A DNA stretch of 64,000 nt, taken from assembly GCA_947304585.1 (NCBI GenBank), contig CAMZBI010000003.1, positions 34,811 to 98,810 of the forward strand, given 5' to 3'. The stretch is from an uncultured Clostridia bacterium. Lineage in GTDB: Bacteria > Bacillota > Clostridia > UBA1212. The notes beneath the pieces were generated by a model that was not told the origin of the DNA, did not search any database, and saw nothing but the letters and a program-made list of their open reading frames with translations. Positions 14,954 through 62,286 of the stretch are shown in pieces. The translations under genes and the position numbers were made by a program. Numbering within the stretch: position 1 is the stretch's first letter; every line of letters starts with the position of its first letter.

Positions 14954-16462
14954 ATGGCAAAGAAAAATAAGAAAGACGAAAATGAAACAATTGAGAACAT
15001 GCCGGAAGTTTTGGATGCAGGTGAAGAGACTCCTGTAAAAAAGAAAAACTCCGGCACTTCTAAATCCGATAAAAATTCTTCGAAGACAAAAGACGTTTTT
15101 GAAGATTACGATGACCTCCCTTATGACGGATATTCTTACGACATTGATGATGAATCCGGTGAGGAATACCTTTCCGAAGATCCGGACGGCATGGAAGATG
15201 ATCTTGCCGAAAAGGAGCCTGATGATAAAGATCTGGAGGATTGCGAAAACGATTTTTCCGATCAGGATCTGATGAATCTAGACGATGAAATTGACGATCT
15301 TGATGACGACGTAGACGACTCCGAAGATCCGGATCTTAACTCTTTGATCGAGGCTGTTTCTGCTGAAGACCTGAACGACGATAAGATAAACGACGAAGAC
15401 GATTTCGAGTTCATGTTCATCAAAAAACTGATCGAAAACGCCAAAGAGACCGGAATTATATACGCAGACGAGATCAACGATCAGGCAGGCGACTATAAAT
15501 TTTCCGATAATTTCTTTGACAAGATCTACGAGCAGGCCGAGAAAAACGGCATAACCATCAGCGGCGATCTGAATGAGGCCAAATCAGACGGCAAATTATT
15601 TACCGACTCCATCGGTACAGCAGAAGGCATCAACGTTGAGGACGACGTAAGAATGTATCTCCACGACATCGGCAAAGTGCCTCTTCTTACTTTCGAAGAA
15701 GAAAAAGAATTGGCTATCGCCATTGAAAACGGTGACTCGTTTGCACGGGACAAGCTTATTGAATCAAACCTCAGACTCGTTGTAAGCATTGCCAAAAAGT
15801 ACGTGAGAAGAGGTCTTTTGTTCGAGGATCTGGTATCCGAAGGAAACCTGGGCCTCATGAGAGCAGTTGAAAAATTCGACTACAGAAAAGGTTACAAGTT
15901 CAGCACCTACGCCACTTGGTGGATCAAACAGGGAATTCAAAGAGCTATTGCCGACCAGGGCAGAACAATTAGAATCCCTGTCCACATGCACGAGAAGATC
16001 AATAAAATGGTCAAGGCCCAGAGGCAGCTTGCCCAGGAACTTGGCCAGGATCCCACACCGGAACAGATCGCAAAAGAGATCAATGAGACCCCGGGACAGG
16101 TCAGAGACATGCTTCGTATCGCGCTGGAACCCATCTCCCTTGAAACTCCAATTGGTGACGAGGACGAGAGCAATATTGGCGATTTCATCCAGGATGACGA
16201 GAACAATTCGCCTCTTGAGTATTCAAGACGCGAGAATATGAAGATCGACGTTGACGAAGCTCTCCAGGCTCTGAACGAAAGAGAGGCCCAGGTGCTGATC
16301 ATGAGGTTCGGCCTTGACGACAACAAGCCCAAGACCTTGGAAGACGTTGGCAAGCACTTCAACGTCACAAGAGAGCGTATCAGGCAGATCGAGTTCAAGG
16401 CTTTGAGAAAACTTAAACACCCCTCCAGAAGCAGAAAACTGAAGGATTATATCAACGGCTGA
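14954..16462 (+). CDS. rpoD: Primary RNA polymerase sigma factor with a long acidic N-terminal extension
   Basis: [50 protein letters not shown]; AGGAGG RBS before ATG 14954. Confidence 0.96.
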
Positions 16463-16483: not shown

Positions 16484-17770
16484 ATGAAAAAAGGTTTTTC
16501 ACGAACTATCTGCTTTTTGATCGCTGCAATAATTCTCTCCGGCATTGTGCTCATTCCTTTCAATGTCATTGAATCCGCAGCATTCAACAAAGCAACCGCC
16601 AATTCGATTGCAGGCAACACAAGGCTTGGCAGCATTAAAGCTAAAGCCTATGCCTCGATGTATTTCGATTCCGGCGAGGTCTCTTTTATGAGTGAAAACG
16701 CCCACGAAAAATTTTCCGTCGGCAACCTCATTAAACTAATGACGATTTACCTTGCCTTCGAAGCGGTAGAGAAGGGCGATACCAGCCTTAAATCCGGCGT
16801 CAAAGTTTCAAAAGCTGCTCAGAACATCTCTGTCGGAAAGGAAAGAGTCTTTCTCGACAGCGGCAAAGGCGAAGTCATAACCGTTGAAGAAGCCGTTATT
16901 GCAATGATCGCAGGCTCCGCCAACGACGCCGCCTATGCTCTCGCAGAGCACATTTCCGGTACCACCGAAGGCGATTTTGTGGACATGATGAACAGGAAAG
17001 CCGCTGTTCTTGGCCTTAACGACACCCACTACGTGGACTCCACAGGTCTCAAGATCATCACCGACGGCCAGTACACCAGCGCCTACGACCTCTGTATGCT
17101 CTCCTACAGGCTCATAAAAGACTTCCCTGCAGTTCTGAATTACACCCGTATCACCTCCGGTACTTTCGTTCACTCCTCCACAGGACAGCCCGACACCAAC
17201 ATGCAAAGCTCCAACGCTCTTGTATACTCCGGCATGCTGGAAGGTGCCGACGGTCTTCTTGTAGGTTACTCCAACGCAGACCTCTACGCCCAGGCAGCCT
17301 CCGCAAAGATCGGTGACGAGCGCACGATTGCCGTTGTTATAGGAGAAAAAACTCCCGAAGACCGTGCCGGCGAGCTCAAATATCTTCTTGAAATGACAGC
17401 CAGAGTCTTCGAATGGCGCGAGCTGGACAAAGAAGGCACCTATGTCAGAATGATCTCCGTCAAAGACGGCAAGACACTTAAAGTCAAAACCGTTACCGGC
17501 CAGTCCCTTGACTATATCGCCAACACCAATGAAAAATACACCGTCGAAAAGAAGATAGTTCTCGACGGCGTGATCGAAGCCCCCGTCTCAAAGGGCGACA
17601 TCGCCGGCAAGGTCGTATACCAGAAGGCCTTCTCCCAGCCCGACGGCACTAAAACCTATGAAGAAATCGGCAGCGTTGATCTGATTATTGACGAGGACGT
17701 GGACCGGGCAGGGTGGTTCCTGCGGTTCCTGCGAAGGATATTGGAATTCCTTGGGTTGATGCAGTATTAA
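16484..17770 (+). CDS. D-alanyl-D-alanine carboxypeptidase homolog (peptidase S11/PBP5 fold) with degenerate catalytic motifs
   Basis: Overall DacA/DacF pattern (KLMT, GSANDAAYALAEH, MNRKAAVLGL, TSAYDL, PBP5 C-terminal domain). SxxK position reads NLIK and KTG position reads LVG. Confidence 0.85.
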   Translation: MKKGFSRTICFLIAAIILSGIVLIPFNVIESAAFNKATANSIAGNTRLGSIKAKAYASMYFDSGEVSFMSENAHEKFSVGNLIKLMTIYLAFEAVEKGDTSLKSGVKVSKAAQNISVGKERVFLDSGKGEVITVEEAVIAMIAGSANDAAYALAEHISGTTEGDFVDMMNRKAAVLGLNDTHYVDSTGLKIITDGQYTSAYDLCMLSYRLIKDFPAVLNYTRITSGTFVHSSTGQPDTNMQSSNALVYSGMLEGADGLLVGYSNADLYAQAASAKIGDERTIAVVIGEKTPEDRAGELKYLLEMTARVFEWRELDKEGTYVRMISVKDGKTLKVKTVTGQSLDYIANTNEKYTVEKKIVLDGVIEAPVSKGDIAGKVVYQKAFSQPDGTKTYEEIGSVDLIIDEDVDRAGWFLRFLRRILEFLGLMQY

Positions 17771-33355: not shown

Positions 33356-35206
33356 ATGATGGAACGCGAAAACTGGGTAAAAGAGTTTACCGACAGGTAC
33401 GTCCGGCATGAGGACGAACTTAAATGGCTTTACTGTGAATTGTATCACAATGACATGGGTGCATATCGCTATTTTGTCGACATGCTCTATCGGGCGTATG
33501 AAGCGCGTCCGGAGTCGTTGAAAAATATGGATCGTGCGCGGGAGGAATACCCGGATTGGTACCGGGGTCATGATCTTGTCGGCATGTTGATGTACGTCAA
33601 CGCTTTTGCCGGCACGTTGAACGGGGTGAAAGAAAAGATCGATTACATCACCGATTGCGGCGTGAACTATCTTCATCTGATGCCTCTCTTGGAAAGTCCC
33701 AAGGGCAGAAGCGACGGAGGTTACGCGGTCAGCAATTTCCGGAAGGTTCAGCCTGAGCTCGGAACGATGGACGATCTTTTCGCACTGTCAGAAGCTTGTC
33801 ATGAGCGCGGCATTGCGGTTTGTCTCGACTTTGTCATGAACCATACCAGCGAGGACCACGAATGGGCCAGGCGTGCGCGTGCCGGCGAAAAGGAATACCA
33901 GGACCGGTATTTCTTCTACGACAATTGGGAGATCCCGAATGCCTACGAGCAGACAGTGCCTCAGGTGTTTCCTACAACTGCGCCCGGCAACTTTACCTGG
34001 TGCGAAGAGGCGAAGAAGGTTGTCATGACCACGTTCTATCCGTATCAATGGGATCTTAATTACACAAATCCTACCGTATTCAACGACATGACGGATGATA
34101 TGTTGAATCTATGTAACCACGGCATTGATATTATCCGTCTTGATGCGGTTCCTTATATCTGGAAAGCCCTTGGCACCAAGTGCCGCAATCTTAAAGAGGT
34201 CCATACTCTCGTACGCATCATGCGCATGGTGTGCGAGATCGTCTGCCCGGGTACGCTTCTGCTGGGCGAGGTGGTCATGGAGCCAAGTAAAGTTGATCCG
34301 TATTTCGGCACAGTCGAAAAACCTGAGTGTCATTTGCTTTATAACGTAACCACAATGGCATCCATTTGGCACACGGTCGCGACGAAAGACGTAAGGCTCC
34401 TAAAGCATCAAATGGAACAGGTTTTCTCGCTTCCGAAACAGTACACGTTCCTGAACTACCTCAGGTGCCACGACGATATCGGCTGGGGCCTGGATTATGA
34501 ATTCCTCAAGTGGTTCGGGCAAGAGGAAATTCCCCACAAAAAGTATCTCAATGACTATCTGACCGGAAAATGGGAAGGAAGCTTCGCTCGCGGAGAGCTT
34601 TACAACGACGATCCGAGGCTTGGCGATGCTCGGCTGTGCGGTACGACCGCGTCGCTCTGCGGAATCGAAGCAGCTGAGAAGATTGGGGACAAGGATGCAC
34701 TTGCCAATGCTATCCGCCGCGATACCATGCTCCATGCTCTGATGTTTACCATGAGCGGAGTTCCGGTGCTTTACAGCGGCGACGAGATCGCCCAGGAGAA
34801 TGACTACGGCTACCACGACGATTCGTTGAAATATGAAGACAGCCGCTATCTGCACCGTGGCAGTCTGGACTGGGAAAAAGCTGCCCGCAGAACTGACGTT
34901 AACTCCACTGAGGGCAAGGTGTTCCAATCAATCAAGCGTCAGGAGGATATACGGGCAGCTTACCGCGTATTCGATGATTCGGCGGATATGTGGGTTCTCG
35001 ACACGCAAAATGATCATATTCTCGGAATCGGACGGTATTATCAGAAAGAAAAACTGCTGGCGCTTTTCAACTTTTCCGATGAACCGCAGGTTGCCTGGGT
35101 ACGCGATCTTTCGATGTACACGGATCTGATTACAGGCGAACAGCGCGATGCAGGAGCAGTTACGCTGCCTGCCGGCGGATTTATCTGGCTGCATCAAACG
35201 TTTTGA
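33356..35206 (+). CDS. Amylosucrase / sucrose hydrolase (GH13_4-like)
   Basis: LHLMPL, DGGYAVS, LDFVMNHTS.DHEWA, RLDAVPYIWK (nucleophile), LLGEVV (acid/base), RCHDDIGWG, RLCGTTASL. Confidence 0.88.
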   Translation: MMERENWVKEFTDRYVRHEDELKWLYCELYHNDMGAYRYFVDMLYRAYEARPESLKNMDRAREEYPDWYRGHDLVGMLMYVNAFAGTLNGVKEKIDYITDCGVNYLHLMPLLESPKGRSDGGYAVSNFRKVQPELGTMDDLFALSEACHERGIAVCLDFVMNHTSEDHEWARRARAGEKEYQDRYFFYDNWEIPNAYEQTVPQVFPTTAPGNFTWCEEAKKVVMTTFYPYQWDLNYTNPTVFNDMTDDMLNLCNHGIDIIRLDAVPYIWKALGTKCRNLKEVHTLVRIMRMVCEIVCPGTLLLGEVVMEPSKVDPYFGTVEKPECHLLYNVTTMASIWHTVATKDVRLLKHQMEQVFSLPKQYTFLNYLRCHDDIGWGLDYEFLKWFGQEEIPHKKYLNDYLTGKWEGSFARGELYNDDPRLGDARLCGTTASLCGIEAAEKIGDKDALANAIRRDTMLHALMFTMSGVPVLYSGDEIAQENDYGYHDDSLKYEDSRYLHRGSLDWEKAARRTDVNSTEGKVFQSIKRQEDIRAAYRVFDDSADMWVLDTQNDHILGIGRYYQKEKLLALFNFSDEPQVAWVRDLSMYTDLITGEQRDAGAVTLPAGGFIWLHQTF

Positions 35207-54824: not shown

Positions 54825-56519
54825 TTACCAGGTGCTCAGAGGTTTCGTAAAGTCCGGGTTCTCCGGAAGCCTTACGCCCTCTCTGAAATGAGTTATATTG
54901 TATTTTTTCATAAGACCGTAAAGTTCTCCAAGTTCTTTCGGTGAGGTTTTTTCGTCCCAGAGCAGCAGGAGTTTTGCGTATCTGATCTGAAGGGACGACT
55001 TTTCCACGTTGGCGAAGTGTTCTTCGTCTGAAGCTTCAATGGCTTTCCCGAAGAGGTCCTCAAGTTCTTCTACTGCTTTGGCAATATCCTTACCGCCAAG
55101 GCTTAGATTGTTTTCAACCCTGTCGTAGATGCCCATGTGGCTTTCCGCGGCAAGCGCGGAAGTATTTGCAATGTATTCTTTTACGAACCGCCAGCCGGGG
55201 CCGTAGTACCCCTCAAGAAAGTCGTCTGCGATCTCCTCAAATCTTTCACGGCTCATATCCGGATCCCACATTATCTTTGCAAGAAGATAGGCTCTCAGCT
55301 CGCCGAACTCCCCGGAAACGCTCTGACCGTTGCCCTGCTCAAAGAGGCCGATGGCATTGTGGGCCGCAAAGAAGCGGACGTTGTCGTATAGCACACCAAG
55401 GTTCGGGAAAGGTATCAGATAGAACAGAAAATCAGTTGTGTAGTCCCAAATGAACAGGTTTTTGCATATCTTCGACCATTCCTCAATATCTTTCCTGAAT
55501 TCAATATTTTGAGGGCAGTCTGCCTCAAGATTATGGGAAAAGCAGCACTCTATGGAGCAGAGCCTGATAATGACGTTGTCTCTTGGTTTCAGAGTCTTTG
55601 GCGCTTTTCTTGTATATCTGTACGCCAACGTATCCACGTAAACACCGGGATAGTCGTCCTTTATATCTTCTGCGATCCTGTTGACGAAGGTGAGGAGCGA
55701 GCCCATGGGAGTGCCCTCTTTCTCGTCAATAGCTCTGCATTTTTCGCATTGGCAACCGAGGCCGTCCGCATAGGAGTCGTTCTGGGAAACAGAGACTATC
55801 CTGGCGTTTTTATTATCGTCAAGATATTTCCTTACTTTTTTAAGAACTTTGTCGTAAACTTCGGGATCGGTGAGACAGGGCTGAGCGTTGGGCTCCCTTG
55901 GCGTGCCCGCAAGATCCGGCAGTGTGTGGACGAATCCGCCAGCGTAGGTTACAAGTTCTCCTCTTCCCTTCGAGGTTCTTTTGAAGCCTCCGTTTATCTT
56001 GAGTTTTGCTGCAAGTCTCATGTCAAAAGTGTTGAACCAGAAGGTGTCCCTTGACATGATCTTTGGCGAATAGGTTATGCAGGCGTCCTCCGGAAGAGGA
56101 ATTCTGTCCATTTTAACAAGTCTTTCGCATTTGGATGAATAGAACCGCCAGCCGATATAATCTTCAAGAAAAGTATAGACCGCATACATGGCGCCTGTCT
56201 CGTTTTGGCCGGTGAGGAAAATGACATCCCCGTCGCAGACTATTGCAAGGCCGTTGTTGCAAAGGCCGGCGCAGGCAGTTCTCACCTTTTCCGTGTCGTA
56301 AGACGTGTGACCGACAAATATAACGCTGCTCGAATCTCCTGAATAATCATCTACCTGCAAAACCTGAATATCCGCGTCAAATGCCTTGTTTATATAAAAA
56401 GAAAGATCATCTGCGGAGTTTGACAGAGTCTCTTCGACGCACCGTCCGTATACTATCTTGTATTCTCTTATATCCCGCCCGTCAAAGAAGCAGGGTCCGT
56501 TGCTTTTGTCCAATTTCAA
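54825..56519 (-). CDS. DUF4838-type putative glycoside hydrolase
   Basis: N-terminal GH20/GH67-like domain (YAVYTFLEDYIGWRFY); QPCLTDP, SVSQND, FVNRIA, LAYRYT, LFIWDY, WDPD. Confidence 0.72.
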   Translation of the reverse strand: MKLDKSNGPCFFDGRDIREYKIVYGRCVEETLSNSADDLSFYINKAFDADIQVLQVDDYSGDSSSVIFVGHTSYDTEKVRTACAGLCNNGLAIVCDGDVIFLTGQNETGAMYAVYTFLEDYIGWRFYSSKCERLVKMDRIPLPEDACITYSPKIMSRDTFWFNTFDMRLAAKLKINGGFKRTSKGRGELVTYAGGFVHTLPDLAGTPREPNAQPCLTDPEVYDKVLKKVRKYLDDNKNARIVSVSQNDSYADGLGCQCEKCRAIDEKEGTPMGSLLTFVNRIAEDIKDDYPGVYVDTLAYRYTRKAPKTLKPRDNVIIRLCSIECCFSHNLEADCPQNIEFRKDIEEWSKICKNLFIWDYTTDFLFYLIPFPNLGVLYDNVRFFAAHNAIGLFEQGNGQSVSGEFGELRAYLLAKIMWDPDMSRERFEEIADDFLEGYYGPGWRFVKEYIANTSALAAESHMGIYDRVENNLSLGGKDIAKAVEELEDLFGKAIEASDEEHFANVEKSSLQIRYAKLLLLWDEKTSPKELGELYGLMKKYNITHFREGVRLPENPDFTKPLSTW

Positions 56520-56661
56520 TTTTGCCTTTCAGAGATCCTTCAGATCATGAAATCCATAAACGATTATATCAAATAATAATCTCATATTCAAAAAATTTAA
56601 AAGAGCCGGCCTCCCTGAATCACAAGGAAGCCGGCCGGAAATACTATTCTAAAATCTAAAA

Positions 56662-58104
56662 TTACTGTTGCTGCTGTTCCTGAACAGGTTTTTCATACTC
56701 AAAACCCGCAAACTCACAAACTATCCTGACCATGCAGTCGTTGAGTTTTTCCACGCTGTAGTCTCCAACAGTCACTTCCTCATGGGAACCGCCAATGCCG
56801 GAGTCGTCCGTAAGGAATACGAAGGTGCCATTGGTGATAGCCGCAAATGATCTGAAGAGATATTCAGAAGCCTGGTCAGCACCGGAGCAGAATACAGGGA
56901 TGATCCTTATGCCTTCAACCGCAGCTTTTATAAGGCTTTCGCGGATATTGTCGTTGATACCGCTGATCTCGGATTCGCTGTGAGGCGGTGCGTCGAGTAC
57001 AAAGAAGCAGAGCTTCAGGGCGTTATTTCTCCACTGGTGGCCGGAGACAACGTTGTCAAGTGCAGTGTGGACAGCTTCCGGGAAATCACCGCCGCCGGTT
57101 GCGGATTCCTGTTTGATCTGATCAAGGCACTGGTTGATGTCTGTTCTGAAGTCGTAGTATTTAACGATATATTCATCGCCTTCGTCCCTGTAAAAGTTCA
57201 CAGAGACTCTGATGGAAACAGCCTCATCTTTGGCGGCGATCCTTTCCACCATGTCCACAAGTTCGGCTTTAATGTATTCAAGCTCGTCCCCCATGCTTCC
57301 GGTGGTGTCGATCATGTACATAAGGTCTATCTCGGAAAGAGTTATGCCTGCATCCTTTGCCTCGATCTCGATCGAGTCTGCGTTAAGTTCATAATCTTTC
57401 CCGTCAACGGATACTGTGGCGGGTCTTTCAAGTTTCTCGTTTTTAAGATCGTAAAAGAGGTATGCGAAGCCGTTTATATTGGTCCTGCCTTCAGCGACAA
57501 CAGTGTTACCGTTTTTAAGTGCAACTTTTACGTTAAAACAGGGATTGTCTCCGTCCTTCACGCAGACGGTGACAGCTTTGTTTGAAAACAGTGCTCTTTC
57601 TTTGGCGTAGGCGTACCAGTTGTTGTCGTTTATCAGTTTGAACCAGGCGGAAAGGTCGTCGGTATCTCTCCACTCGCCGGCTGTAAGGGTGCCCGCCTTT
57701 GCGGAAATATCAACAATACCGCCGATGACTCCGGTATCAACTATCTCGCCTACTCTGTCGATTGCTCCGTAGTAAGCTGCGTCGGCTCCCGGCATCGGCA
57801 CAGGCATCTCAGCTTCCGACAATATTTCTTTGGAATCGCCCTTTGAGCCAACGATTCCGTCAATGAATTTATCAAGTGCACTTGTGTTTTCTTTTCCGCC
57901 GATTACACCGTCAAGGTTTGAAGGAGTTTTGTTGAGGTTTCCCACTATCAGCCAGGTGGAGAGGACCGCTACACAGAGCACGAAGCAGGCGCAAGAAACT
58001 GCCAGCCCGATCCATTTCTTTTTAGTCATCCTCTTCCCGGAGGTCTCTTTTACTATATCCGGGTCTATATTTCTCATAGCCTCGTCAATGTCGTTTCTGT
58101 TCAT
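56662..58104 (-). CDS. Membrane protein with anti-sigma-like N-terminus, one TM helix and an extracellular vWA domain
   Basis: N-terminal DEAMRNIDPDIV...KKKWIGLAVSCACFVL; LTAGEW motif; MIDAS-like DTTGSM, GGGDFPEAV, LDAPPH. ATG 58104. Confidence 0.8.
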   Translation of the reverse strand: MNRNDIDEAMRNIDPDIVKETSGKRMTKKKWIGLAVSCACFVLCVAVLSTWLIVGNLNKTPSNLDGVIGGKENTSALDKFIDGIVGSKGDSKEILSEAEMPVPMPGADAAYYGAIDRVGEIVDTGVIGGIVDISAKAGTLTAGEWRDTDDLSAWFKLINDNNWYAYAKERALFSNKAVTVCVKDGDNPCFNVKVALKNGNTVVAEGRTNINGFAYLFYDLKNEKLERPATVSVDGKDYELNADSIEIEAKDAGITLSEIDLMYMIDTTGSMGDELEYIKAELVDMVERIAAKDEAVSIRVSVNFYRDEGDEYIVKYYDFRTDINQCLDQIKQESATGGGDFPEAVHTALDNVVSGHQWRNNALKLCFFVLDAPPHSESEISGINDNIRESLIKAAVEGIRIIPVFCSGADQASEYLFRSFAAITNGTFVFLTDDSGIGGSHEEVTVGDYSVEKLNDCMVRIVCEFAGFEYEKPVQEQQQQ

Positions 58105-58105
58105 T

Positions 58106-58588
58106 TCAAAAACCTTCCTTTTCAAAATAATTTCTAAGCCGGATCCTGATCTCCGAAAGCCGCGACCGTATCTCGTCAACGTCAGTTTTTTCGGACTTCG
58201 ATATCTCCTCAGGGGTGTCGTAGAAATAATATCTTCTCATAAATATCTTTCTGTCCGCCGGAGAAAGAGTCCTAAGAAAATCGGAGATCTTCTTTGCAAT
58301 AAGGGCCACCATGACGTCGTCCGCGCTTTCATCACTGTTTTCGCCCTCTCCCGGGAGACAGTCCGACAGTTCCCCCGAGGCCTCGGTTCTTTGAAGATCA
58401 CCCTGTATCAGGTAATCCACCCCGACGCTGAAAAGCTTTGCGATCTCGGAGAGCATTTCCTCCGACGGGTACCTCTTGCCCAGTTCCCACTTGGCCACGA
58501 GAGCTCTTGAAACGAAGAGCCTGTCGGCAAGTTCCTCCTGAGACATCCTGTGTTTTTTTCGTAATGATTTAAGCGCGTCTTTGATCAT
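58106..58588 (-). CDS. XRE-type HTH fused to an ECF sigma-70 region-4-like domain
   Basis: N: LRKKHRMSQEELADRLFVSRALVAKWELGKRYP. C: FLRTLSPADRKIFMRRYYFYDTPEEIS...SRLSEIRIRLRNYFEKEGF. Confidence 0.8.
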   Translation of the reverse strand: MIKDALKSLRKKHRMSQEELADRLFVSRALVAKWELGKRYPSEEMLSEIAKLFSVGVDYLIQGDLQRTEASGELSDCLPGEGENSDESADDVMVALIAKKISDFLRTLSPADRKIFMRRYYFYDTPEEISKSEKTDVDEIRSRLSEIRIRLRNYFEKEGF

Positions 58589-58630
58589 GGTCCGGACCTC
58601 GATGATAGTTTAGGTTTTTGAACCGCCAAT

Positions 58631-58673
58631 GTAAAGTGACACTTCCTGTCACATTTTACCGTAGAAGATTATA
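58631..58673 (-). promoter_or_regulatory. Candidate operator palindrome plus -10 box of the XRE/sigma4 gene
   Basis: GTGACA-N5-TGTCAC (58636-58652) with partially symmetric flanks; minus-strand TATAAT at 58668-58673. Confidence 0.5.
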
Positions 58674-58745: not shown

Positions 58746-58774
58746 TTGACTAAAAGGGCCTGTTTTTGTATCAT
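58746..58774 (+). promoter_or_regulatory. Sigma-A promoter of the acyltransferase/GT8 operon
   Basis: TTGACT-17 bp-TATCAT. Confidence 0.7.
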
Positions 58775-58851
58775 ATCAATGCGGGATGACGTTGGCGGTT
58801 TCCGGAAACTGCCAAAGATCCGATATATGCAGGAGAGGAGCGCCGGTCACT

Positions 58852-59646
58852 TTGAAGAAAAAAAAGACGATATACTATTCCGACGAGCTGAATGACGAAT
58901 TCTCATCCGCCGTTATCGAACCGATCAGAATAGATAAATTCTACCGCTACGACAGGAGCCGGGGCTTCTCAGGGGTGATAAGATTTTTCTTTTACAGGAT
59001 CGTAGCCACACCCCTTGCATTTATATACTGCAAGCTTTTTCTCCACTACAGCTGCGAAAACCGGGAGATACTGAAGCCTTTCAAAAAGACAGGTCTTTAT
59101 CTCTACGGCAATCACACCTCAAACTATGGCGACCCTCTCATGCCGAATCTATTTGCATTCCCGAGAGACGTTTATTTTGTGGTACATCCTAACAACGTGT
59201 CCATGCCCGTTCTTGGACCCATCAACAGATACATTGGGGCAATTCCTCTTCCCGACGACATTGACGCCGCCAAGAATTTCACAAGTTTTGTCAACGGCAG
59301 GATAGAGAACAAGGACATAGTGACGATATATCCCGAGGCTCACATCTGGCCTTATTACACTAAGATCAGGCCCTTTACCGACAAGTCCTTCGGCTATCCC
59401 GCCAGGACAGGCACTCCTGTGTTCTGCTTTACCAACACATACAGGAAGAGGTATCTCTTTGGCAATGAGCTCAGCAAGCCGAAGATTGTGACCGTGATCG
59501 ACGGGCCCTTTTATCCTGACATGGAAAAGCCCCTTGGCGAGAGAAAAAAAATTTTAAGAGATCAGGTCTACGATACAATGTGCCGGCGGGCTGAGCTTTC
59601 CGATTTGGAGTTTATTGTTTACAAAAGAAAGGATGCAACCTTATGA
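58852..59646 (+). CDS. PlsC/lysophospholipid acyltransferase family protein
   Basis: GNHTSNYGD, IYPEAHIW; GAGGAG RBS before TTG 58852. Confidence 0.8.
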   Translation: MKKKKTIYYSDELNDEFSSAVIEPIRIDKFYRYDRSRGFSGVIRFFFYRIVATPLAFIYCKLFLHYSCENREILKPFKKTGLYLYGNHTSNYGDPLMPNLFAFPRDVYFVVHPNNVSMPVLGPINRYIGAIPLPDDIDAAKNFTSFVNGRIENKDIVTIYPEAHIWPYYTKIRPFTDKSFGYPARTGTPVFCFTNTYRKRYLFGNELSKPKIVTVIDGPFYPDMEKPLGERKKILRDQVYDTMCRRAELSDLEFIVYKRKDATL

Positions 59647-60485
59647 TAAATATTCTTTTCTGCGGCAACGAAGGGGTTTTTGACGGTGTTCTCACCTGCA
59701 TGCTTTCGATCCTGAAAAGGACCGAAACGAAGGAGCCCTTTAAGTTCCACGTCTTCACTATGGATCTTACTGATCTTAAGCCAAACTATACACCGGTAAC
59801 GGAAGACCACAGGAAGTTTCTTGAGGACATTGCCAAAGAATACAACGGCGAAAACACCGTGGTTCTTTTTGACGTCACGGAGCTTTACAAAGAACATTTT
59901 TCCGGATGCCCCAACGAGAGCGCATACTGCTCGCCCTATACGCTTATAAGGCTTCTTGCGGATCTGGTGCCCGGGCTTCCCGACAAAATGCTCTACCTTG
60001 ACACCGATATTATGTTCAACAGGGACGTAATGCTTCTTTATAACATTGACGTTGAGGATTACGAATACGCAGCGGGCCGCGATCACTACGGGAAATATCT
60101 GATCAACCCCAATTACATCAACGCCGGGGTTCTCCTCTTCAACATGAAAATGATGCGTGAGACCGGCATATTTGCCAAGGCGAGAGACTGGCTCCGCAAA
60201 AAGAAGCTGGTGTTTGCCGACCAGAGCGCGCTTATAAGATCCACAACAAAGAAAAAGATGCTGCCCCAGCGGTTCAACGACCAGAAGTTCCTTCACAAGC
60301 ACACCGTTGTAAGACACTTTTCGAAGAGGCTCTTCTGGCTGCCCTACCCCCACACCGACAATATTAAACAGTACCACGTGACCAAAGTCCACAAGGTCTT
60401 CAGGTATTTCGTCTTTGACGACATACTTTTTGAATACATCTATCTGAAGAAAACTTTTGACAAGCAGCAGAGCGGCAAACTCTGA
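59643..60485 (+). CDS. Glycosyltransferase family 8
   Basis: RLLADL, YLDTD (DxD), INAGVLLFN, DQSAL, VRHF. Confidence 0.87.
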   Translation: MINILFCGNEGVFDGVLTCMLSILKRTETKEPFKFHVFTMDLTDLKPNYTPVTEDHRKFLEDIAKEYNGENTVVLFDVTELYKEHFSGCPNESAYCSPYTLIRLLADLVPGLPDKMLYLDTDIMFNRDVMLLYNIDVEDYEYAAGRDHYGKYLINPNYINAGVLLFNMKMMRETGIFAKARDWLRKKKLVFADQSALIRSTTKKKMLPQRFNDQKFLHKHTVVRHFSKRLFWLPYPHTDNIKQYHVTKVHKVFRYFVFDDILFEYIYLKKTFDKQQSGKL

Positions 60486-60507
60486 GATCATACGAAAGGA
60501 ATTACTT

Positions 60508-62286
60508 ATGAAAAAAGCCGTAATACCGATTTTTTACGCCTGCGACGATAACTTCGCCAAATACACCGCCGTGTCCATCACCTCTCTGAAGGAACACGCA
60601 ACAGCTGATTTTGAATACGACATCCATATACTTAACGCCGGCCTCTCGCCGGAGACTGTTCAAATGTTCAGAAACCTGGAGTCTTCCGAGATCAGGCTGA
60701 TCTTTGTTGACGTGTCTGACTACCTGCTGAACGTTTCCGAAAAACTGCCCCTCAGGGACTATTATTCCCGGACCACGTATTACAGGATGTTCATTGCCGA
60801 GATGTTCCCGGAGCTTACAAAGGCCATATACATCGACAGCGACACGGTGATTTTGAGGGACGTTTCGGATCTTTACTATACGGACATTGGCGACTGCTTC
60901 GTCGGCGCCTGCCACGAACAGGTAATGGTGCAGATCGACACCTTTGGCACGTACGTTGAGAAAGCCCTTGGCCTTTCAAGGTACAGTTTCTTCAACGCCG
61001 GTATCCTTCTCATAAACTGCGAGGAGTTCAGGCTCCATTTCGTCCTCGACAAATTCATATACTACCTCAGACTCTACAATTTTGTGGTCACCCAGGACGA
61101 GGACTACCTGAACGTCATCTGCAAGGACCACGTTTTCTGGCTTAACCAGCGGTGGAACACTCAGACGCTTGATTACATTCCCTTCCCCATTGACGAGGCC
61201 AGGATAATCCACTACTGCCTCTACAACAAGCCCTGGCACTACGCCGACACAAAGCACGGAGACATTTTCTGGAACTACGCCAAAAAGACCGAGGTATATG
61301 ATATACTTAAGCAGGAGCTGGAGTCGTACACCGACGAGCAGAAGGCGAAGGACGTACAGGGTGCAGAGAACCTGTTAAAGCTTGCAGATACAGAAACCCA
61401 CAAGGAGGACAATTTTCTCAATATGGTCAACGAACAGCACAGATCATCCGACAGAGTGGAGATCGTCAGAAAGATTGAAGAATTTGAAAAACGGGGCAAT
61501 TTCTTTGAGGACGTGGAAAATGATCCGCCCTCCAAAGAACTCTTGCCAAACGAGATCGATTACTACAGAAAAGGCATTGTCCAGAAGATACAGACAAAGT
61601 TTGCGTTTATCATCGCCCACAGATACGTTAAAAGTCTGATAGCGGAGAAGAAGTTCATACTGAAGGCGATAAAAGGCATTGAATATTTCAAAAATCTGGA
61701 TTCCGGTGCGGTGATAACATGCAACCACTTCAATGCCGCAGACAGCTTTGCGATCCAGCTGACTTATGAGGCCGCAGACCAGCCCAAGAGGAAGTTTTAC
61801 AGGGTAATCAGAGAAGGAAACTATACCTCGTTCCCAGGCTTTTACGGCTTCCTGATGAGAAACTGCAACACCCTTCCCCTCTCCTCCAACAAGGAGACCA
61901 TGAAGAAATTCATCAGGGCCACTGACCAACTTCTCAAAGAGGGCAACTTCGTACTGATATATCCCGAGCAGGCCATGTGGTGGAACTACAGAAAGCCAAG
62001 GCCCCTTAAGAGAGGTGCATTCGTATTCGCTGCGAGAAACATGGTGCCGGTGCTGCCCTGCTTCATAACAATGAAAGACTCGGACAACATTGACGGCGAC
62101 GGGTTCCACATTCAGGAATACACTGTAAACGTGGCGCCGCCAATATATCCCGACCCGTCGCTTTCCGAAAGGGAAAACACAAAGATGCTGATGGAGAAAA
62201 ACTCCGCCATTTGGAAGGATATTTACGAACTGACCTACGGAATACCGCTCAGCTACACCTGTGATACGGAGAACAGTGAGCAGTGA
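60508..62286 (+). CDS. Fusion: GT8 glycosyltransferase plus C-terminal PlsC-like acyltransferase
   Basis: GT8: YYRMFI, YIDSD, FNAGILL, QDEDYLN, IIHYCLYNKPW. Acyltransferase: CNHFNAAD (HX4D), LIYPEQAMW, VPVLPCF. Confidence 0.87.
   Translation: MKKAVIPIFYACDDNFAKYTAVSITSLKEHATADFEYDIHILNAGLSPETVQMFRNLESSEIRLIFVDVSDYLLNVSEKLPLRDYYSRTTYYRMFIAEMFPELTKAIYIDSDTVILRDVSDLYYTDIGDCFVGACHEQVMVQIDTFGTYVEKALGLSRYSFFNAGILLINCEEFRLHFVLDKFIYYLRLYNFVVTQDEDYLNVICKDHVFWLNQRWNTQTLDYIPFPIDEARIIHYCLYNKPWHYADTKHGDIFWNYAKKTEVYDILKQELESYTDEQKAKDVQGAENLLKLADTETHKEDNFLNMVNEQHRSSDRVEIVRKIEEFEKRGNFFEDVENDPPSKELLPNEIDYYRKGIVQKIQTKFAFIIAHRYVKSLIAEKKFILKAIKGIEYFKNLDSGAVITCNHFNAADSFAIQLTYEAADQPKRKFYRVIREGNYTSFPGFYGFLMRNCNTLPLSSNKETMKKFIRATDQLLKEGNFVLIYPEQAMWWNYRKPRPLKRGAFVFAARNMVPVLPCFITMKDSDNIDGDGFHIQEYTVNVAPPIYPDPSLSERENTKMLMEKNSAIWKDIYELTYGIPLSYTCDTENSEQ

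Follow-up and report, generated by a model that had tools for sequence, protein, structure and literature searches.

An XRE-sigma region 4 regulator and its membrane partner in rumen and gut Clostridia: a putative two-headed transcription factor of ECF sigma/anti-sigma ancestry

The stretch of DNA analysed here, called the window in what follows, comprises 64,000 nucleotides of an uncultured Clostridia bacterium (positions 34,811 to 98,810 of contig CAMZBI010000003.1, assembly GCA_947304585.1). It carries on the minus strand a two-gene operon encoding a regulator with an XRE-type helix-turn-helix (HTH) domain followed by a sigma-70 region 4 domain (sigma4), and a single-pass membrane protein, the partner, whose start codon lies 1 bp past the regulator stop codon (Table 1). 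A scan of GTDB genomes, one per species, rendered 206 related loci, and the detailed family counts given below rest on the best 80 of them, which come from ca. 66 assemblies. A full-text literature search found no description of a protein combining XRE and region 4, so that this family of rumen and gut Clostridia is apparently undescribed. New here are its operator, the type of its promoters, the covariation between protein and DNA, and the tie to a specific group of canonical extracytoplasmic function (ECF) sigma factors.

Table 1. Coordinates of the regulator/partner operon in the window and evidence for each feature
Feature	Coordinates	Strand	Evidence
XRE-sigma4 regulator gene, 160 aa	58106..58588	minus	open reading frame; Pfam and NCBIfam matches; AlphaFold2 (AF2) model; full-length homologs
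XRE (HTH_3) domain, residues 6-60	58409..58573	minus	HTH_3 match; Foldseek; covariation of helix position 29 with operator position 13
Inter-domain linker, residues 61-86, conserved EL..C.P motif (E73, L74, C77)	58331..58408	minus	family alignments; AF2
Sigma-70 region 4 domain, residues 87-157, four helices	58118..58330	minus	Sigma70_r4; TIGR02937; PDB profile matches; identity to P0017
Partner gene, single-pass membrane protein, 480 aa	56662..58104	minus	open reading frame; pairing in orthologs of unrelated neighbourhoods and in 76/80 family loci
Partner cytoplasmic N-terminal motif, residues 1-22, MNRNDIDEAMRNIDPDIVKETS, presumed anti-sigma peptide	58039..58104	minus	family consensus; canonical ECF loci
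Transmembrane helix, residues 29-54, preceded by basic stretch KRMTKKK	57943..58020	minus	hydrophobicity scan; AF2 helix
Extracellular beta-sandwich, residues 176-248, after conserved helical segment AGTLTAGEWRD..W	57361..57579	minus	AF2 (pLDDT 65-88); invariant ortholog columns
Extracellular von Willebrand factor type A (vWA) domain, residues 258-440, MIDAS-like motif, GGGD340 and D371	56785..57333	minus	Pfam; 7 orthologs; Foldseek
Operator GTGACA-GGAAG-TGTCAC, ca. -53 to -37	58636..58652	minus	exact palindrome; kept in orthologs; local variant of family operator
Likely promoter, TTTACA (-35, 58635-58630), 17 bp, TAAACT (-10, 58612-58607)	58607..58635	minus	promoter scan; orthologs; family geometry
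Intrinsic terminator ending the two-gene operon	56604..56636	minus	14-bp stem followed by a T run; strong

Searches of Pfam matched HTH_3 to the N-terminal domain of the regulator (E 4e-14, 52.8 bits against a cut-off of 23), and region 4 to residues 100-152, with scores that are borderline for the window protein (Sigma70_r4, 24.0 bits against a cut-off of 24.1; Sigma70_r4_2, 21.7 against 25.7) and clear in its relatives. The NCBIfam ECF model TIGR02937 aligns with the regulator at model positions 95-164 of 165 only (E 6e-8), and no match to region 2 (PF04542, Sigma70_r2) was found in the regulator by either Pfam or NCBIfam searches. The AF2 model, built from 75 family sequences (predicted local distance difference test, pLDDT, 87), consists of a five-helix XRE domain at residues 2-61, a linker helix at 65-75, a disordered segment at 82-88 and a four-helix sigma4 bundle, with no evident dimerisation module. 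In this model, and in Foldseek comparisons with it, residues 1-62 adopt an XRE fold in place of sigma region 2, at a root mean square deviation of 0.6-1.7 Å from the DNA-binding domains of ImmR, CylR2, P22 c2 and SinR, and of ca. 1 Å from that of C.BclI. The XRE recognition helix is S27-R-A29-L-V-A-K-W-E35 and that of the sigma4 HTH spans residues ca. 137-152, in a domain for which the family profile matches the sigma4 of SigF, RpoS, SigL and SigK in a profile search of the PDB. The two domains were each matched separately in the PDB, and no solved protein containing both was found there with Foldseek and the profile search. The agreement of Pfam, NCBIfam and the AF2 model bears out the original prediction, made from the letters of the window, that this protein joins an XRE HTH to region 4 and has no region 2, and since region 2 is absent it cannot be a conventional sigma factor. 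The linker, about 10 residues longer in the window regulator than in the main family according to the alignments, includes the motif EL..C.P, in which Glu and Leu are invariant or nearly so throughout the family and Cys is present in the majority of members (Cys77 in the window, 58358-58360); the motif could be a redox-sensitive or docking element.

The N-terminus of the partner carries the motif MNRNDIDEAMRNIDPDIV, followed by a basic stretch, a transmembrane (TM) helix at residues ca. 29-54, a low-complexity spacer, the beta-sandwich and the vWA domain, the last of which was matched by VWA (PF00092) at residues 260-435 (37.8 bits against a cut-off of 23.8). The short N-terminal motif, the TM helix and the vWA domain, as well as the 1-bp gap between the genes, are as originally predicted. 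The residues D266-T-T268-G-S270 (DxTxS, vs DxSxS...T...D in the metal ion-dependent adhesion site, MIDAS), GGGD340 and D371 are invariant in 7 orthologs, so that by its motif the site is MIDAS-like and metal binding is putative. The AF2 model of the partner is of low confidence (pLDDT 55), and the vWA fold assignment alone was used from it; with this low-confidence model, Foldseek indicated resemblance to integrin beta I-like and VWF A1 domains (E 7e-8, template modelling score of 0.6 to A1). Neither in residues 1-60 of the partner nor in 64 family partners did Pfam or NCBIfam searches produce a match to a recognised anti-sigma domain (zf-HC2/RsiW-type, RskA, RsgI_N and similar); what the partners have in common is the N-terminal motif, with the consensus MN...lydAiagIDe.lidrae. 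Beyond it, 55 of the 64 contain no Pfam domain, three have BspA-type leucine-rich repeats, and the lengths of the complete ones range from 149 to 780 aa, those that are cut being longer. Because the vWA domain is confined to the ortholog group of the window (5 of the 64 partners), it is one of many sensor heads. Two rumen metatranscriptome contigs, both short, fall inside the vWA partner gene and are a weak sign of its expression; they were all that public RNA gave, and neither reaches the 5' end of the operon, so that no transcript 5' end was obtained from them.

The association of the two genes is a general property of the family. A coupled partner was found in 76 of the 80 loci, with gaps of -23 to +5 nt (an ATGA overlap being commonest) and a TM helix at ca. 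32-56, and two of the other loci are at contig ends. Orthologs of 53-69% identity to the regulator retain the vWA partner despite having entirely different flanking genes, and a relative of 41% identity is paired with a different ectodomain. Nearly all hosts of the 80 loci are metagenome-assembled genomes of rumen or gut Clostridia (Acutalibacteraceae, Ruminococcaceae, Oscillospiraceae and 'Mageeibacillus'). The genome of the window (G000; 2.39 Mb, 97% complete) encodes eight full-length paralogs, and behind each of them, overlapping it or next to it, lies a gene for a single-pass membrane protein whose N-terminus bears the motif of the family partners. Full two-domain members are present in 3 of 301 evenly sampled genomes of the class, at 5-8 copies each, which makes for a narrow, patchy and paralog-rich family. 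A misassembly or a recent deletion as the origin of the chimera, a possibility that would have undone the original prediction, can be rejected in view of the 206 loci and the eight paralogs of this genome; moreover, DNA contigs from run X1 cover the regulator gene without joints. The genome contains two genes with a sigma region 2, RpoD (window ca. 15743-16420) and a 351-aa sigma factor (C1:134939), and neither a canonical ECF sigma nor a sporulation sigma was found in it. As both region 2 matches belong to these sigma factors, no separate gene for a region-2-only protein, as in SigO-RsoA, was found in the genome. A site-2 protease gene is present.

The best match outside the family of the C-terminal half of the regulator is P0017, a canonical ECF sigma of 184 aa with regions 2 and 4. 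The two sigma4 domains (...ISDFLRTLSPSDRVMFMRRYYY...KLARIKEKLKQYLMTKG in P0017, ...ISDFLRTLSPADRKIFMRRYYF...RLSEIRIRLRNYFEKEG in the window regulator) are 41% identical and have in common the pattern FL..L....R..F.RRYY...I....G.....V...L.R.R.KL...L.keG, with whose 'L.keG' end the C-terminus of the regulator, ...YFEKEGF, agrees, in line with its earlier description as typical of clostridial ECF factors. Sigma factors of the P0017 type were found in 69 of 300 genomes of the class, in up to 11 or more copies. At 28 of the 31 canonical ECF loci the gene that follows shares 4 nt with the sigma gene and begins with the same kind of motif (e.g. MKDYKFIDAIGDIDEDLIAQA), to which a basic stretch and a TM helix are joined, as the original prediction had held for genes that follow clostridial ECF sigmas. 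Because the partner motif also follows canonical clostridial ECF sigmas with a similar region 4, the regulator/partner pair is a derivative of an ECF/anti-sigma pair, and with 76 of the 80 loci coupled the view of it as a conserved unit of that ancestry is upheld. Region 4, being the only domain common to both kinds of regulator, is the likeliest docking site of the partner peptide. In a tree of sigma4 domains, the XRE-sigma4 proteins as a single clade were not rejected (p-AU 0.66), and this would agree with region 2 having been exchanged for an XRE domain only once. Canonical ECF relatives (L114-L144) also share the sequence TATAT(A/G)GGTGAA(A)GG, conserved directly behind the -10 and 10-30 nt past the CGTC box, which could be a conserved leader or discriminator.

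The original prediction had pointed out a palindrome, GTGACA-N5-TGTCAC, just downstream of a -10 box. The palindrome is exact (0.13 occurrences with at most one mismatch are expected per window) and it is conserved, but it was misplaced, as it precedes the predicted promoter TTTACA-N17-TAAACT, lying directly 5' of the -35 hexamer with a gap of zero. It is kept in orthologs of 47-69% identity, being the same in L001, L004, L034 and L035, while in L036 and L037 both halves are altered symmetrically to GTTACA/TGTAAC, and its half-sites have a centre-to-centre spacing of 11 bp. The -35/-10 pair with its 17-bp spacing is found at the same place in 6 of 7 orthologs, the fit being ambiguous in L004, and the -10 variants in this subgroup are TAAACT, TAAATT and TACATT. 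Such an operator position would be that of an activator and not that of a roadblock past the -10. The TATAAT at 58681-58676, possibly a second upstream promoter, had no -35 partner in the promoter scan, and its position is not kept in orthologs. That the palindrome acts as an RNA hairpin or terminator is unlikely, given that most family members carry an asymmetric version at that place which does not form a hairpin.

To define the operator across the family, the upstream regions of the eight paralogs were aligned first, which brought out a common element whose distance to a TATAAT box is constant, and a weight matrix was then iterated over 90 loci. The resulting family operator is the 15-bp sequence G-N-T-R-C-R-TTT-TGT(C/A)CC, with TT(T/G)AC immediately 3' of it. 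Nearly every operon of the family carries it, and distinct sites scoring at least 12 bits number 79 among the 90 loci, against a genome-wide background, at the same threshold, of 43 matches in 4.8 million positions, the top ones of which are the promoters of the paralogs themselves. A -10 box, found independently of the matrix, lies 16-18 bp past a TTGACA-like hexamer and is an exact TATAAT at 49 of the 79 sites; the -35-like hexamer matches the consensus at a mean of 4.0 of 6 positions, and the consensus itself is never present. Across the 79 sites the operator keeps its zero-gap place 5' of the -35 and never overlaps the -35/-10 core. By these features the promoters are of the sigmaA type and not of the ECF type, which in at least 7 canonical ECF relatives reads G(T/A/C)(G/A)AC-N16-17-CGTC. 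Of three marks of an ECF factor, region 4 is present but region 2 and an ECF-type promoter are absent, so that the regulator is not a sigma factor, in keeping with the earlier statement that it could not melt -10 elements as one. The main-family operator is asymmetric, since the left half, G-N-T-R-C-R, is not the mirror of the right half, TGT[C/A]CC, and position 3 does not follow position 13. The spacer is N5 in the window subgroup vs N3 in the main family, a difference that goes with the longer linker of the former. Two long-linker paralogs (C18:28145-28678 and C1:57984-58505) have a different right half-site, TTTTGTGGC, and the XRE helix SRSLVSMWE, a variant that the matrix misses. The equation of the left half with an ECF -35 element (GTGAC/GTAAC) fits some subgroups, including that of the window, and fails for the commonest GGTGCG type, so that it stays no more than an idea.

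Covariation between protein and operator was analysed in 81 distinct protein/site pairs, and two separate sets of positions had the highest mutual information: operator positions 13-14 with the residue that varies within the XRE recognition helix (SR-x-LVSKWE), and operator positions 2-5 with residues of the region 4 recognition helix. Asp in the XRE helix goes with TGTCCC and Glu with TGTACC (C:A at position 13, 40:0 with Asp vs 5:25 with Glu; Fisher 2e-14; Cochran-Mantel-Haenszel test over six left-half classes 8e-9). In region 4, Ser vs Thr or Val at the VR-x position goes with G vs A at operator position 4 (34:2 vs 5:30; Fisher 1e-12; Cochran-Mantel-Haenszel 5e-6), and Lys vs Arg at the LS-x position with G vs any other base at position 2 (23:0 vs 0:49; Fisher 3e-19). 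Three of four control cross-combinations were not significant (p 0.10-0.44), the fourth, XRE Asp/Glu with position 2, giving p 0.02. Since the XRE helix co-varies with the downstream half-site and the region 4 helix with the upstream one, both HTHs appear to read DNA, each on its own half, with the XRE recognition helix apparently reading the operator at the regulator's own promoter. The original prediction that the XRE domain supplies DNA specificity and region 4 a handle is thereby supported for the XRE domain; region 4 seems to be more than a handle. In addition, the two halves of the main-family operator are not mirror images of each other, which argues against a homodimer of one head.

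The best explanation of these observations, and in our judgement a reasonably probable one, is that the regulator is a sigma-derived, membrane-sequestered, two-headed activator of its own operon. The pair would descend from a clostridial ECF sigma/anti-sigma pair in which an XRE (Cro/C1) HTH replaced region 2, turning the regulator into a transcription factor of the ordinary kind that reads adjacent half-sites with two unlike heads. Presumably binding as a monomer, it would place the region 4 HTH on the upstream half of the 15-17-bp operator (GTGACA in the window) and the XRE HTH on the downstream half (TGTCAC), at ca. -41 to -36, adjoining the -35 of the operon's own sigmaA-type promoter. The partner peptide would hold the regulator at the membrane, most likely via region 4, until a signal reaches the ectodomain, of which the beta-sandwich and the MIDAS-like vWA domain would be the putative receiver here. 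Given the site-2 protease gene of this genome, regulated proteolysis is one possible route of release. The released regulator would then activate its own operon, and probably a few other promoters, via the sigmaA holoenzyme. From the position proposed for the XRE head, lambda cI bound at OR2 activates PRM by touching sigma region 4. Positive autoregulation is in our judgement favoured over repression by a fair margin because of the strict zero-gap position, the sub-consensus -35 and the weak -10 of the window subgroup. A further-reaching claim, to which we would give slightly less than an even chance, is that in this family a sigma factor has been turned into a classical transcription factor, with region 4 reading double-stranded DNA outside RNA polymerase beside the XRE head under a partly readable code (XRE Asp with C and Glu with A; sigma4 Lys/Arg and Ser/Thr with the upstream half), with the ancestral peptide gating it from the membrane, and with eight such pairs replacing the whole ECF role in this genome.

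Several observations weigh against this explanation. The predicted leader of the regulator gene is of only ca. 11 nt. The operator of the window subgroup is a perfect palindrome whose halves changed symmetrically in L036 and L037, as a homodimer of one head would also give. With respect to the covariation, relatedness among the sequences may inflate the contingency statistics, and a tree-based independent-pairs test on well-supported branches was underpowered, with ca. 3 co-changes and none in the opposite sense among 5 pairs (p 0.25), although in the same direction. The covariation between partner peptide and regulator (mutual information with average product correction) showed no enrichment for either domain and thus no preference for region 4 over the XRE domain. 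Finally, TTTACA-17-TATAAT is already near the consensus, so that an activator may be unneeded and autorepression is possible.

This last point is the core of the alternative that survives best, which we nevertheless hold to be rather unlikely: the regulator would be an autorepressor of a near-consensus sigmaA promoter, de-repressed when the activated partner sequesters it. XRE proteins are typically repressors, the promoter of most members looks strong by itself, and the operator touches the -35. Against this, the operator is never on the -35/-10 core and its fixed zero-gap place corresponds to the geometry of class II or lambda cI-type activation, ECF ancestors were positive autoregulators, the -35 is never the consensus, and the -10 of the window subgroup is weak. 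A somewhat less plausible alternative is that an XRE dimer reads the palindrome, region 4 making no DNA contact and having no other role than that of a handle, be it for the membrane partner or for RNA polymerase. Many XRE proteins bind symmetric sites as dimers, as PDB matches to the XRE domain also illustrate, and the perfect inverted repeat of the window group, with its 11-bp spacing and the symmetric changes in L036 and L037, would suit such a dimer. This is countered by the asymmetry of the main-family operator, in which position 3 is independent of position 13, by the left half tracking residues of the sigma4 helix and not of the XRE helix, and by the lack of an evident dimerisation module in the protein model.

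It seems improbable that region 4 still docks on the beta-flap of RNA polymerase as a detachable promoter-recognition module, by sigma appropriation or as part of a split sigma. The region 4 fold and the RRYY/RxRxKL signature are retained as in canonical ECF sigmas, the PDB profile search matched a sigma4 bound to the beta-flap tip helix (6ido), and the niche is free in a genome with no ECF sigma; yet the sigma4 residues track a site at ca. -50 to -45, about 15 bp 5' of the -35 and away from where a flap-bound region 4 would lie, a separate TTGACA-like hexamer 17 bp from TATAAT is available for region 4 of sigmaA, and no region-2-only partner gene was found in the genome. Least probable of all is that the partner is a co-sensor or tether to which the regulator stays attached while active (a ToxR/CadC-like logic over two chains), or that the pair is non-regulatory, for although translational coupling would give the ca. 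1:1 synthesis that suits a stable complex and the inhibitory role of the partner is deduced, its motif is common with partners of canonical ECF sigmas, which are unable to transcribe while membrane-bound, and variable ectodomains behind a constant short peptide form an anti-sigma pattern.

The closest known system is that of group 4 ECF sigmas with single-pass anti-sigmas, such as SigW/RsiW and SigV/RsiV of Bacillus subtilis and the clostridial P0017 and L114-L144. The regulator resembles these in its homologous region 4 (with the RRYY...RxRxKL...keG signature), the translationally coupled downstream gene and the many paralogs per genome, and the partner in its short N-terminal motif, basic stretch, TM helix and variable ectodomain. 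It differs in having an XRE HTH for region 2, in its TATAAT promoters in place of CGTC, and in a region 4 that appears to read a site ca. 15 bp 5' of the -35, outside the holoenzyme. On the DNA side it is comparable to lambda cI at OR2/PRM and other Cro/C1 regulators acting from ca. -42, given that an XRE half-site adjoins the sigma70/sigmaA -35 and autoregulation is likely; unlike in lambda cI, the second head would be a sigma region 4 in the same chain and not a second XRE subunit, control would be exerted by a membrane partner and not by RecA-type cleavage, and activation is putative. In its input the pair would resemble an ECF sigma/anti-sigma system, and in its output a regulator of the Cro/C1 type. 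SigI/RsgI of Clostridium (Acetivibrio) thermocellum likewise form multiple paralogous pairs in Clostridia that are cellulolytic or live in the rumen, a single TM helix being followed by a variety of extracellular sensor modules, but SigI is a complete sigma and the N-terminal anti-sigma domain of RsgI (RsgI_N) was not found in the window partner. In SigO-RsoA of B. subtilis sigma functions are also split, with region 4 lacking region 2 in the same chain, but that system needs a second small region 2 protein, none of which was found here, and the N-terminus of our regulator is an XRE HTH. PhyR, a receiver fused to a sigma-like domain and acting as an anti-anti-sigma, is another ECF-derived module diverted from initiation that keeps an anti-sigma-type partner, as is presumed here; PhyR has both sigma2- and sigma4-like parts and binds no DNA, whereas region 4 of the regulator seems to have kept DNA reading.

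Among the means by which bacteria signal across their membranes, ECF sigma/anti-sigma pairs are the third great pillar. The family described here would be a case of their rewiring, in which the sensor and docking peptide were kept and the output switched from a sigma to a sigmaA-dependent transcription factor, and would show, in nature, region 4 of a sigma factor binding DNA as a domain on its own. The covariation provides testable specificity rules for both heads, from which one could predict what the many paralogs in uncultured Clostridia of rumen and gut control, and with which orthogonal regulators with two heads could be constructed. The mostly unannotated ectodomains imply that the family marks a set of extracellular sensors in fibre-degrading communities.

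No wider regulon was visible in a weight-matrix scan of the genome and a search for the exact palindrome, which rendered only paralog promoters and two further elements. One is an orphan copy outside the window (contig C34:10911-11021), 111 bp long and 98% identical to the operator, promoter and first 11 codons of the regulator gene (MIKDALKSLRNQ, then a stop), with unrelated sequence after it; it may be left over from a duplication or a recombination event, or else serve as a decoy. The other, at C1:164282-164325 (plus strand), consists of a family-type operator and promoter (GTGACATTTTGTCTC, then TTTTTT-N17-TAAAAT) with no XRE-sigma4 gene behind it, and precedes a 13-codon open reading frame and two lipoprotein-like genes, which makes it a candidate non-auto target of one paralog. 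GC-rich repeats (GCGCCGCACCACTCG..., CGCAGTGATGCAACTACG...) lie just 5' of two paralog promoters and of the orphan copy (C41:ca. 17530-17730, C66:ca. 1170-1340 and C34:ca. 10700-10830).

With regard to the neighbouring genes in the window, a DUF4838 gene (54825-56519, minus strand) follows the operon terminator and has its own TG-extended promoter, TTGAAT-17-TATAAT, at 56563-56591 (minus strand); it is not part of the unit, since its synteny is limited to the closest orthologs (present in L001, not in L004). On the other side, a divergent cluster of acyltransferase and Glyco_transf_8 genes (58786-62286, plus strand), with its own promoter TTGACT-17-TATCAT (58746-58774), adjoins the pair in the closest orthologs only.

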